This document shows positions 7,701 through 49,939 of a DNA stretch of 64,000 bases, in pieces. Origin of the DNA: Eledone cirrhosa (lineage: Eukaryota); contig OZ024743.1 of assembly GCA_964016885.1 (NCBI GenBank), forward strand, positions 147,126,001-147,190,000, given 5' to 3'. Positions within the stretch are counted from its first letter, which is position 1. Every line of letters starts with the position of its first letter. The translations under genes were made by a program, and so were the position numbers. The notes beneath the pieces are model-generated. The model was not told the DNA's origin and ran no database searches. It worked only from the letters and a program-made list of their open reading frames with translations.

Positions 7701-7755
<55 letters not shown>

Positions 7756-8059
7756 ATAATAATAAATGTGAAGACTAAAATTTTAATATATATATATATA
7801 TACTTTAATGGCTTCAGTCATTGGACTGAACAAATGGGGTAGCAAAGATCACCCAGAGATAGCTAAATGCTAACCTAGAAGGCATGAGATTTGCCAATGT
7901 CCAGCGATGTGGGGATCCGAGTCATGAGCTGTGTTACCCCACAAAATCTAGGTTAGTATAAATCAGGATATGGGTGAGGAAAAGTGTTTTTGAAATGACA
8001 TTGGTTCACTTAGCATCTCTGACGGCTGGAAATACTGCTATGAGAGAGAGATGAATGTA

Positions 8060-8673: not shown

Positions 8674-8681
8674 TATATACA

Positions 8682-9230
8682 TATAGCACCACACCCAACT
8701 TCGCAAAAAACATCACCTCCTCAAACAACAAGAAACTCAACTCCTACGGAAGAAACAACTTAGACATTAGTGGAGAGCCGACCAGGAGGTGTAACTGCCC
8801 TGATAGATCTACGTGCCCCCTCAACAACAGATGCAGAGAACCTAACGTGATCTACCAATGCAACGTGAGGACGGAAAACTCCAAAAAAGTCTATATAGGA
8901 TTAACCATCTATGACTTTAAGACCCGGCTCTACCAACACCGACATACGTTCAGTAACCCGGCCCAGCGACATGTCACTACACTTTCGGGCCACATCTGGG
9001 ACCTCCAAGATAATAACATAACATACCATCTTACTTGGAGCTTACTCTCCAGGGCTAACTCCTACACGGGAGGACGCCGTCCGTGTAACTTATGCTCGGA
9101 GGAAATGATACAAATGCTGTTTACGAAAGACCAACTCCTAAATAAAAAAGACGAACTTGTAACCGCATGTAAACACCGATTGCGTAGGATTTACCTTGCC
9201 TTCAAACCTCCTCACGACCCGGGTGGGTAG
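8682..9230 (+). CDS. Penelope-like element GIY-YIG endonuclease, 5'-truncated, Naiad-type Cys pattern
   Basis: CNCPDRSTCPLNNRC linker, NVIYQC...VYIGLT, FKTRLYQH, LSGHIW, CNLCSEE, LLNKKDEL..ACKH; the ORF portion upstream of 8682 is only (TA)n read-through. Confidence 0.92.
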   Translation, partial: YSTTPNFAKNITSSNNKKLNSYGRNNLDISGEPTRRCNCPDRSTCPLNNRCREPNVIYQCNVRTENSKKVYIGLTIYDFKTRLYQHRHTFSNPAQRHVTTLSGHIWDLQDNNITYHLTWSLLSRANSYTGGRRPCNLCSEEMIQMLFTKDQLLNKKDELVTACKHRLRRIYLAFKPPHDPGG

Positions 9231-9806: not shown

Positions 9807-9901
9807 ACACCTTGAAGAGTTCGGCTAGATCATTACCATGTTAAAAATTTAATTTAGTCCAGAAATAGACATCGAAATGGCTTGAGCTCTGCCGTCGGGG
9901 T
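9807..9901 (+). ncRNA. hammerhead ribozyme family A, decayed copy at the 3' end of the PLE
   Basis: ACACC-TTGAAGA-stem II-GAAA-TGGC(TTGAGCTCT)GCCG-TC-GGGGT. Confidence 0.6.
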
Positions 9902-9934
9902 CCTGAACCTTTTCCTATATATATATATATATAT

Positions 9935-10260
9935 AGGAAAAGTATGACCCCGACGGCAGAGCTCAAGCCGTTTCGACGGCTATTTCTGGACAAAAGTAAG
10001 AGTGTTTTTAGTCTGATAAATAAATAGCCGAACTTTTCAAGGGGTACTCCCTTATATGGGAAGATTGTAGTTGTCAAGAGCATTGGTCAAAATTTGTAGC
10101 AGACACAGAAAAGTCTATCATGGCAGTGGGGGTGGAGGTGGCTGAACTTGCTTGTAGAACAATAGGGGAGTGGGTAGAGCCGATCAAGCGTTGAAGGTGA
10201 AATCTACACGGCAAATTCTCAAGAAAGTGTAAGAAAGTAGGCCAGGGGAGGTAGGCGAAA
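9935..10260 (-). mobile_element. diverged PLE family A 3' region, tail-to-tail with the preceding copy
   Basis: Reverse complement aligns with about 9580-9915 (CCCACTCCC..ATTGTTCTACA.GCAAGTTC.GCCACC). Confidence 0.8.
9947..10045 (-). ncRNA. hammerhead ribozyme family A (U3-A8 core, long stem II)
   Basis: ACCCC-UUGAAAA-G UU CGGCUAUUU..AAAUAGCCG U C-GAAA-CGGC loop GCCG-UC-GGGGU. Confidence 0.75.
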
Positions 10261-11814: not shown

Positions 11815-12133
11815 TATTTATTAAAATAACAGATTAAAGTTTAAACAAATAATCGCTGCTTTCACCCTTAACGGGATCTTCTGAAACTAACAAAGTCAAT
11901 CTGTGAACGCTGAAGTGAATATTTAGAAAAACGTTGCAACCGGAGGAAGACAGGAAGACGATACTTTGGTTCGTGGAAACGTTCCCTGGCAAAGAACGGG
12001 GAAAAACGAATATAATACGTCATTATTTGGAGCGGTGAAAAACAATTACACGTACAGTTCTTATATATTTGATATATATTTATCCTTATCGAGCCCTCTT
12101 TGGATTTTAGTCTTCAAATTTATTATTATTACT
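11815..12133. mobile_element. HHR family C element: inverted arm (11815 to about 12050) plus forward tail
   Basis: Both parts shared with 19166-19390; HHR fold on the minus strand at 11829-11904. Confidence 0.75.
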
Positions 12134-12217
12134 ATATATATTTCAAATCCATATTTAATAAAAACACCATGTTATTTATTATTCATTCTGACGACTGAAG
12201 ACAGATGTAAATATATA

Positions 12218-15300: not shown

Positions 15301-15483
15301 AACCAGTAAGACCCCGACAGCTGAGCTCAAGCCGTTTCGACGGCTAATTCTGGAATTAGCCGTCGAAACGGCTTGAGCTCAGCTGTCGGGGTCTTACTGG
15401 TTCCTATTACCCACTCTACTACCTCAAGTATTGAGTACTTTGGTGCGTTATGGTCCACCTGGTTCCTTACCACATTTCCTTCG

Positions 15484-16819: not shown

Positions 16820-16977
16820 GAAGGAGCTTCTACAGCATTGAGCTTCCTGAAGATTTCATCTGAATGAAACAGTACTAGTCCTGTAGAAGCTCCTTCTATA
16901 AAATAAAAAAATTTTACTCTGCCATCTATTGAGTACCTTACTTACTGTGGTTATCCCCGACTCAACCCGGGACCTAC

Positions 16978-19028: not shown

Positions 19029-19390
<362 letters not shown>

Positions 19391-19476
19391 ATATATATTT
19401 ATATAGATATTTATATACTCATATTTTTGTGTGCATAATCATTGTTTTAAAATATAGTCACAATATCAATTCATTT

Positions 19477-23712: not shown

Positions 23713-23882
23713 ATATTTATTTTATTATATATATTTCAAGGTTTTGCCTTCATCCTTACGGGGTCGATAAAATAAAGTACCAGTAATACACTGGGTATTT
23801 GCTGGCCTGGTGCCTAAAGTAGAAAAAATTATATATATTTCAAGGGTACCAAGATGTTGGTAGGCCCTCATCAGATAAAATA
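23713..23882 (-). ncRNA. minimal hammerhead (family I) split by a SINE S1 insertion
   Basis: 18-bp TSD at 23724-23741 and 23828-23845; removing the SINE restores UAUUUUAU-CUGAUGA-stem-GAAAUAUAUAUA-AUAAAAUA. Confidence 0.75.
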
Positions 23883-25612: not shown

Positions 25613-25675
<63 letters not shown>

Positions 25676-25764
25676 GTAATAAAAATAAATTTGAAGACTA
25701 AAATCCAAAGAGGGTTGATAAGGATAAATTTATATTAAATACACACACATACACACACACACAT

Positions 25765-30184: not shown

Positions 30185-30228
30185 AAATATTACCGGTTTC
30201 GATTGGCCTATCAATCTTATCAAATATT
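30185..30228 (-). ncRNA. minimal hammerhead family H with U3-A8 core
   Basis: AAUAU-UUGAUAA-GAUUG AUAGGC CAAUC-GAAACCGGUA-AUAUU; partial second copy on the plus strand at about 30765-30795. Confidence 0.75.
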
Positions 30229-49144: not shown

Positions 49145-49307
49145 TTATATATAAAAATATAAAATATGCTTTCATATGCACCCCTTTTTATAAATATAAT
49201 TGCACTACGGGTTTATATATATTTATTTTATATATATAATCCTTATCGATCCCTCTTCAGATTTTTGTCTTCACATTTATTATTACTATATATATATATA
49301 TATATAG

Positions 49308-49349: not shown

Positions 49350-49398
<49 letters not shown>

Positions 49399-49939
49399 AT
49401 AATAATAAATTTGAAGACTAAAATCCAAGACTATAAATATATATATATATATATGGAAAGGGGGGGGGGAGGAGAGAGATGTATTTAGACAAAAACATTA
49501 TATAAATATATATATATCCCACAATCAGTATATATATATTTTTCTATAATATATTTTTATATATTTCACGCATAAAAAAATTACTTTCAATATCTGCTGG
49601 TAAAGAGAATTGTATCAACTTTGGAGTGTATATGTGGATTGCATATTTAGTTTTGTGTATGTGTTTATATCGTGAAAGCTAATATATATAAAGAAATATC
49701 TATCAAAAGGAAATATATATCATTTCAATCTATTTAGTAAAATATCTGTAACGTTTATGTCTGCGCATATATACATACTCACATATATATATATACAGAA
49801 GTAGCAGCGATTCTTTGCTTAAACTTTAATCTGTTATTTTAATAAATATATATATATATATATACTCTCTCTTTCTCTCTCACACACACATATATCTATA
49901 TCTATATCTATACCTATATATCTATAAACACATTTACAC

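Follow-up and report, generated by a model that had tools for sequence, protein, structure and literature searches.

We have analyzed a 64,000-nucleotide stretch of the genome of Eledone cirrhosa (assembly GCA_964016885.1, contig OZ024743.1, positions 147,126,001 to 147,190,000 of the forward strand; hereafter the window) and found on its minus strand, at 11829-11904, a hammerhead motif that carries adenine instead of uracil at position 4 of the catalytic core (A4), so that the core strand reads CAGAAGA. To judge from the sequence, this motif is the hammerhead of a 5'-truncated copy of a Penelope-like element (PLE) of the Hydra clade, and A4 is the founder state of every subfamily that we sampled. 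Our preferred reading, tentative and a little short of an even chance, is that selection maintains the A4 hammerhead as an attenuated ribozyme, one whose cutting would be slow and would probably require the element's own protein.

The motif and its departures from the hammerhead consensus

The preliminary description of this DNA had placed here, on the minus strand, an extended and bulged stem I, the CAGAAGA core, stems II and III, the GAAA strand and the cleavage site. All of these parts were found where it had put them, with standard pairs in 21 of the 21 modelled positions (coordinates in Table 1). Stem II consists of CCC/GGG around a GUUAA loop and is flanked by a U10.1/U11.1 mismatch, and stem III is a GCA/UGU helix, 4 bp in all, closed by a loop of 9 nt. 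Two departures from the family majority are found in the window copy, a C to U change at 16.2 (position 11845), which yields a private G.U in stem III, and a C to A change in loop III (position 11850).

Compared with the consensus, the motif has the architecture of a type I hammerhead, three helices around the core with the ends in stem I, and C3, G5, A6, G8, A9, G12, A13, A14, the A15.1-U16.1 pair and H17 all conform. It departs in the U4 of the CUGA turn, in the 10.1-11.1 base pair (here U.U) and in the match to the Rfam model: Rfam detected no hammerhead in 301 bases of an intact copy at E values up to 10, nor in the window among the best 150 of 294 matches, where the hits were microsatellite-driven microRNA (miRNA) models. 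A 26-letter pattern of the motif gave 23,083 matches in the genome against 0 for its reversed control, and the motif is therefore not a chance occurrence.

Position 4 in the young family

We searched the complete genome (3.0 Gb) for copies with exactly matching flanks. Position 4 was A in 16,482 of 16,635 matches and any other base in the remaining 153; U was present in 31 of the first 100 non-A copies listed (hand count), which corresponds to about 0.3% of the copies. Besides, A4 was found in all 38 motifs adjoining 21 distinct intact open reading frames (ORFs). These numbers rule out single-copy decay as the source of A4. The preliminary description had argued that A4 was a natural variant and not the decay of one copy, and had proposed the family consensus at position 4 as the check, a majority of U4 copies being the outcome that would contradict it. 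The consensus is A, and the claim is strongly supported, although by the genome-wide counts and the older subfamilies rather than by the evidence first offered for it, a second copy in the window. This second copy does contain CAGAAGA with A4 (19235-19229), but it is not independent as had been stated: it is one arm of a fold-back of the same family, and so it shows inheritance and not a separate origin of A4.

A large U4 sister subfamily was also considered. A pattern with U4 and a free stem II had 238 matches in the genome (3 for the control), and the 30 loci that we read, with 4 more from the listing of non-A copies, were scattered mutants, fold-back junctions, three copies of older type and four unrelated hits. 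No large hidden subfamily appeared among them, a sub-lineage of less than about 1% being below the reach of this sample. With the loosest pattern U4 was found in 5 of the first 100 matches, mostly at fold-back junctions where CAG is read as CTG, and three of the five overlap a match on the opposite strand. A comparison with another sample (raw DNA reads) and with three further organisms (contigs) showed no change at position 4 among the 40 listed of 49 differences with a frequency of at least 2%. In a further comparison the best-supported 40 of 176 differences were all located upstream of the core.

Older subfamilies and conservation of the fold

A4 is also found in four older types of subfamily, whose identity to the young one is about 75-84%. 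They were sampled in three ways, with a 5' anchor, with an anchor outside the motif and with fuzzy anchors. With the 5' anchor, position 4 was A in 94, C in 3, G in 3 and U in none of the first 100 of 205 matches, while N7, a free position of the core, was A in about 56 and U in 37 (hand count). With the anchor outside the motif 90 loci were fetched of 470 matches, and A4 was present in 23 of the 23 copies whose alignment extended past the core. The fuzzy anchors provided 222 parsed copies in which five subfamily types could be told apart by loop II, loop III, the stem I bulge and N7, all of them with one common core; U occupied position 4 in 10 of the 222, and those inspected were fold-back junctions.

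We compared the majority letters of old and young copies over the motif and its surroundings. None had changed in the core (0/11) or in the stems (0/40), against 7 of 25 in the loops and 12 of 74 in the flanks. Taken together, 0 of 51 structured positions and 19 of 99 others had changed (Fisher p=0.0004), a figure obtained with the anchor outside the motif. The bulge and loop II both vary between subfamilies, with one possible co-change, in which a U-to-A replacement in the bulge accompanies the GCUUUA type of loop II (3 copies).

Two further features of the old copies were observed. Those in which G5 reads A (loci L259, L260, L280, L298 and L299) belong to different loop II types, and this position is possibly a mutational hot spot. 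In the old subfamilies (loci L189 to L308) loop III holds an odd near-palindrome like that of the dimer-type Hydra hammerheads. In the young subfamily it is weakened, and this sequence difference may point to a change from dimer to monomer folding.

The host element

Full copies of the element encode a 709-amino acid (aa) ORF with reverse transcriptase (RT) and GIY-YIG regions, and the long frame was present in 16 of 16 fetched loci. The motif is sense to this ORF and lies about 0.9 kb 3' of its stop; in tandem copies it is also found about 180 nt before the start. All 16 fetched intact copies have YRDD and IVY..AYIG. The protein also has SDKTGN (DKT for DKG), an N-terminal RWR motif (RWK in three of four aligned relatives), the CxCX5C linker as CNCRNRADC, and the endonuclease (EN) motifs CxxC as CDLC and CxH as CKH. 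As in the Hydra clade, the element inserts in (TA)n and has pseudo-long terminal repeats (pLTRs), inverted 5' copies and an optional tail. The protein motifs are those by which the Hydra clade has been defined (Craig et al., 2021; PMC8557442), and on them we base the assignment. The Nematis clade was considered as well and was rejected in favor of Hydra on the same published definition. Pfam returned 0 families at E values up to 0.1 for the 709-aa ORF, and the assignment rests on the motifs and the alignment; two relatives (P0002 and P0009) resemble by eye the printed Hydra-2_Amil protein. As for the canonical CUGANGA hammerhead of Hydra pLTRs, the motif is there but with A4.

The intact ORFs differ on average by 2.3% (105 of 120 pairs, the 15 others being left out because indels broke the ungapped comparison), indicating that the A4 family is young. 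The hammerhead ends about 15 nt before the inner 3' end of the element. Just 5' of the core the read depth approximately doubles (L122:935-955; L115:4160-4190), and many genomic copies begin or fold back there, which suggests frequent stalling or switching of reverse transcription on the 5' side of the hammerhead.

How an A4 hammerhead might work

The attenuated ribozyme that we favor would operate as follows. After read-through transcription of tandem copies, the RNA would fold as a monomeric type I hammerhead, a fold made possible by the 4 bp of stem III. The adenine would weaken the U-turn and would lengthen a competing UUUCA/UGAAA helix by a fifth pair (A4-U11.1). As this helix would form before the 3' strand of stem I has been made, co-transcriptional cutting would be suppressed. 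The uncut template would stay whole, and its reverse transcription would start a few tens of bases downstream. Slow cutting assisted by the protein would come later in the cycle, and would explain why the other catalytic bases have been retained.

Part of this scheme has parallels in the literature. U4 touches the A6-N7 phosphate, and a natural U4C variant of a viroid cuts poorly in vitro and sufficiently in vivo (Perreault et al., 2011; PMC3088659). Slow cutting and low activity are described for metazoan PLE hammerheads (Cervera and de la Pena, 2014; PMC4209133), the one of an anole PLE needs its ORF protein in order to cut (Frangieh et al., 2024; PMC11167929), and a kinetic trap has been proposed for hammerheads before (PMC1636495). 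In our folding calculations the C3-G12 off-helix had a predicted probability of 0.40 with A4 and 0.02 with U4.

Several results weigh against the attenuated ribozyme. The hammerhead is not the minimum-energy fold (z -1.27) and lies 2.8 kcal/mol above the predicted minimum. The proximal part of stem I reached a predicted probability of 0.08, and of only 0.12 with U4, so that in the folding model the off-helix is not the main barrier. No excess of 5' junctions was apparent at the exact predicted cut site: 5 of 78 non-indel junctions (hand count, first 100 of 964 matches) against 3 of 83 in a control family with U4 (hand count, first 100 of 162 matches), which shows no excess either (p=0.49). Over three positions the values were 15/78 and 28/83 in the control (p=0.05), a comparison confounded by TA microhomology, so that the junctions say little about cutting of the template RNA. 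Ambros and Flores reportedly found in 1998 that the plus hammerhead of peach latent mosaic viroid (PLMVd) no longer cleaved with A or G at position 4. The conservation has its own weak points. The core alone does not differ significantly from the loops (0/11 against 7/25, p=0.076), at a 25% minor-allele threshold 2 of the 40 stem positions vary (one of them a CpG), in 5 of 24 old copies position 5 is A instead of G, and compensatory pair changes were not found in any stem. Finally, in pairwise mutagenesis the single and double mutants of the CUGA turn had low activity with the exception of the C3-G8 swap (PMC9901934).

Other explanations for the conserved fold

It is quite possible that the motif is catalytically dead and that the three-way junction has been kept as a structural signal, for example to bind or position the RT at the initiation site or to protect the RNA end. 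Such a fold, without catalysis but retained for its structure, accounts for the data almost as well as an attenuated ribozyme does. The low activity of the CUGA mutants just mentioned speaks for it, as does the reported loss of PLMVd cleavage with A4, and so does the distribution of the selection signal, significant in the stems (0/40; p=0.02 even with the stricter threshold) and not in the core. The family went on amplifying with A4, the motif ends close to the inner 3' end, and in the anole PLE cutting is dispensable for insertion in vitro (PMC11167929). Against it, the majority in five of five subfamily types has G5, A6, G8, A9, G12, A13, A14, A15.1-U16.1 and a base other than G at 17 while N7 changed, and at the rate of the loops about three core changes would be expected.

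There is a slim chance that the core is fully compensated, a contact between the bulge and loop II or some other change letting A4 replace U4, with efficient cutting by the RNA alone. The preliminary description had mentioned such a compensated core as one option, a natural variant of low activity being the other. All subfamilies retain the long bulged stem I, tertiary contacts have been described that rescue some core variants and soften the rules of the core (PMC3088659, PMC3884650), and the U-to-A change in the bulge co-occurs with the GCUUUA loop II, although the three copies may represent a single event. On the other hand, bulge and loop II differ freely from one subfamily to another, a second, compensating change in the core is absent, second changes fail to rescue CUGA mutants (PMC9901934), and the folding predicts the hammerhead as a minority state.

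Equally improbable is a neutral relic, a ribozyme that died once in the master lineage, in a region that looks conserved by chance or through unrelated constraints on the pLTR (promoter, end signals): the subfamily-level changes are few (19), the position classes were assigned by ourselves, part of the old sample was picked with patterns containing the motif and no covariation was observed, but the 0/51 against 19/99 stands with the anchor outside the motif, and the unchanged positions span both strands of four helices with the changed ones in the loops between.

A more far-reaching reading, which we consider unlikely, is that this lineage would be the first natural one in which a hammerhead with a purine at position 4 cuts at a useful rate. 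The bulged stem I, loop II and the element protein would make this possible, and the A4-U11.1 pair would act as a built-in delay keeping the RNA whole until reverse transcription starts.

Comparison with relatives and published hammerheads

We examined 78 metagenomic loci encoding relatives (identity about 40%) with a descriptor that leaves position 4 free. There were 71 hits in sense (pLTR duplicates included), 66 with C3-U4, 3 with U3-U4, 1 with C3-C4, 1 with U3-A4 (apparently by chance) and 0 with C3-A4, and 2 in antisense. In 369 sequences (1.16 Mb) from the genome of E. cirrhosa itself, the 17 other multi-copy motif groups were all U4 by majority. A search with the nearest protein relative (56% identical) gave the A4 family alone and did not find the closest U4 outgroup. 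As far as these comparisons of sequences go, A4 is peculiar to this lineage and the relatives carry U4. Apart from these groups, a single unrelated hammerhead-like hit with CAGAGGA, an A4 candidate, was seen at 2157 on the minus strand of locus L021.

The published Hydra hammerheads are the closest known system (PMC8557442). Like ours they are sense, of type I and located in the pLTR of an element with a C-terminal EN inserted in (TA)n, and one member, Hydra-1_cRog, has a bulged stem I as the A4 family does. In their table the core is CUGA in 26 of 26 rows, where ours is CAGA, and U10.1.U11.1 is present in 14 of 26 (hand count). The latter mismatch is thus an inherited and known Hydra trait, which leaves A4 as the one new feature: hammerheads in Hydra PLEs and U10.1.U11.1 are known, and what is new, to go by the copies compared here, is the A4 core. 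Stem III also differs, with 4 bp and a non-palindromic loop of 9 nt in our motif and a short palindrome in theirs. The ORF is unlike Hydra-1_Obim at its printed N-terminus, indicating a different family. The host element and the standing of U10.1.U11.1 as a trait of the clade had both escaped the preliminary description.

The minimal hammerheads of PLEs (PMC4209133) share with the A4 family the pLTR site, thousands of mostly truncated copies, pairs on opposite strands, a core variant at the level of the family (U3-A8 in their case) and a low expected activity. In contrast, U3-A8 is a compensated pair swap, and the A4 motif can fold as a monomer. No variant of position 4 appears in the text of that article available to us. 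Among the natural core variants collected by Perreault et al. (2011; PMC3088659), U10.1-U11.1 occurs naturally as the best-tolerated mismatch and position 4 also varies (to C), whereas here A4 is fixed across subfamilies and in over 16,000 copies. The accessible parts of that work contained no purine at position 4, and four strings with the CAGA core had no match in its supplements. The Poseidon PLE of the anole (PMC11167929) has a pLTR hammerhead near the RT start sites as well and is our model for protein-dependent cutting. It belongs to another PLE clade, the available text mentions no change at position 4, and its hammerhead was shown to cut while for A4 cutting is only predicted. Literature searches on U4A and on octopus hammerheads yielded, within their scope, no report of a natural A4 core. 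In position and fold the A4 family corresponds to the type I hammerheads of PLEs, but it departs from them at U4, and it should not be classed as canonical unless cleavage is demonstrated.

The role of hammerheads in PLEs has been called open in the literature, and the A4 family provides a natural experiment, being young, with many intact ORFs, and having amplified through several subfamilies with a supposedly crippling core change while the fold was kept. Should the A4 RNA cut, the core consensus now accepted would be too strict, and whole families would escape searches with a CUGANGA descriptor. Should it not, the family would show that selection can keep the fold for a role other than cleavage.

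Coordinates and other copies of the family in the window

Table 1. Parts of the A4 hammerhead and copies of its family in the window (positions are those of the window).
Feature	Position	Strand	Basis
Type I hammerhead fold with A4, bulged 14-bp stem I, 3-bp stem II, 4-bp stem III	11829..11904	-	sequence and modelled pairs
Core strand C3 A4 G5 A6 A7 G8 A9, A4 = 11882	11877..11883	-	sequence; family state
G12 A13 A14 A15.1 (GAAA)	11860..11863	-	sequence
U16.1, U17, predicted scissile bond between 11843 and 11842	11842..11844	-	sequence and hammerhead numbering (prediction)
Distal stem I, 9 pairs including one G.U	11904-11896 with 11837-11829	-	
Stem I bulge, 7 nt	11895-11889	-	
Proximal stem I, 5 bp	11888-11884 with 11842-11838	-	
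5'-truncated 3' end (pLTR) of Hydra-clade PLE, ending in (TA)n	11815..12052	-	blastn, 92% identical to intact-ORF copy L113
Inverted copy of element tail, joined to 5' end of truncated copy	12053..12135	+	96% over 83 nt
Second copy, fold-back left arm: core with A4 and 3' half	19166..19238	-	sequence
Fold-back right arm: begins inside core strand, continues through tail	19238..19392	+	sequence
Third family fragment, truncated inside stem III, without core 5' strand	49803..49849	+	sequence

In the left arm of the fold-back, the 5' strand of stem I has been lost at the junction except for UUU. Lone tail fragments of the A4 family or of the older subfamilies were also observed in (TA)n at 7750-7781, 25673-25741, 49185-49288 and 49393-49428 of the window.

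Other hammerhead families

The window holds the endonuclease end of a second family of Hydra type (46% identical) at 8679-9227 on the plus strand. Behind it, at about 9810-9990, lie two hammerhead-like motifs, inverted with respect to each other, with U3 and a long stem II; the form present elsewhere in multiple copies is U3-A8. A perfect hairpin at 15305-15394, matched by Rfam to MIR810, has by eye the appearance of a folded-back 3' half of the hammerhead of that U3-A8 family and not of a miRNA. Motifs of other families were found at 16847 (plus strand; U4 with U.U at 10.1/11.1 and a 3-bp stem III), at 23874 (minus strand; U4 with a long stem II) and at 30223 (minus strand; a U3-A8 candidate). 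Loci L104, L079, L009, L004, L028, L090 and L376 represent multi-copy hammerhead families with C.A or A.A at 10.1/11.1, and many others have U.U, a mismatch at this position being recurrent among these elements.
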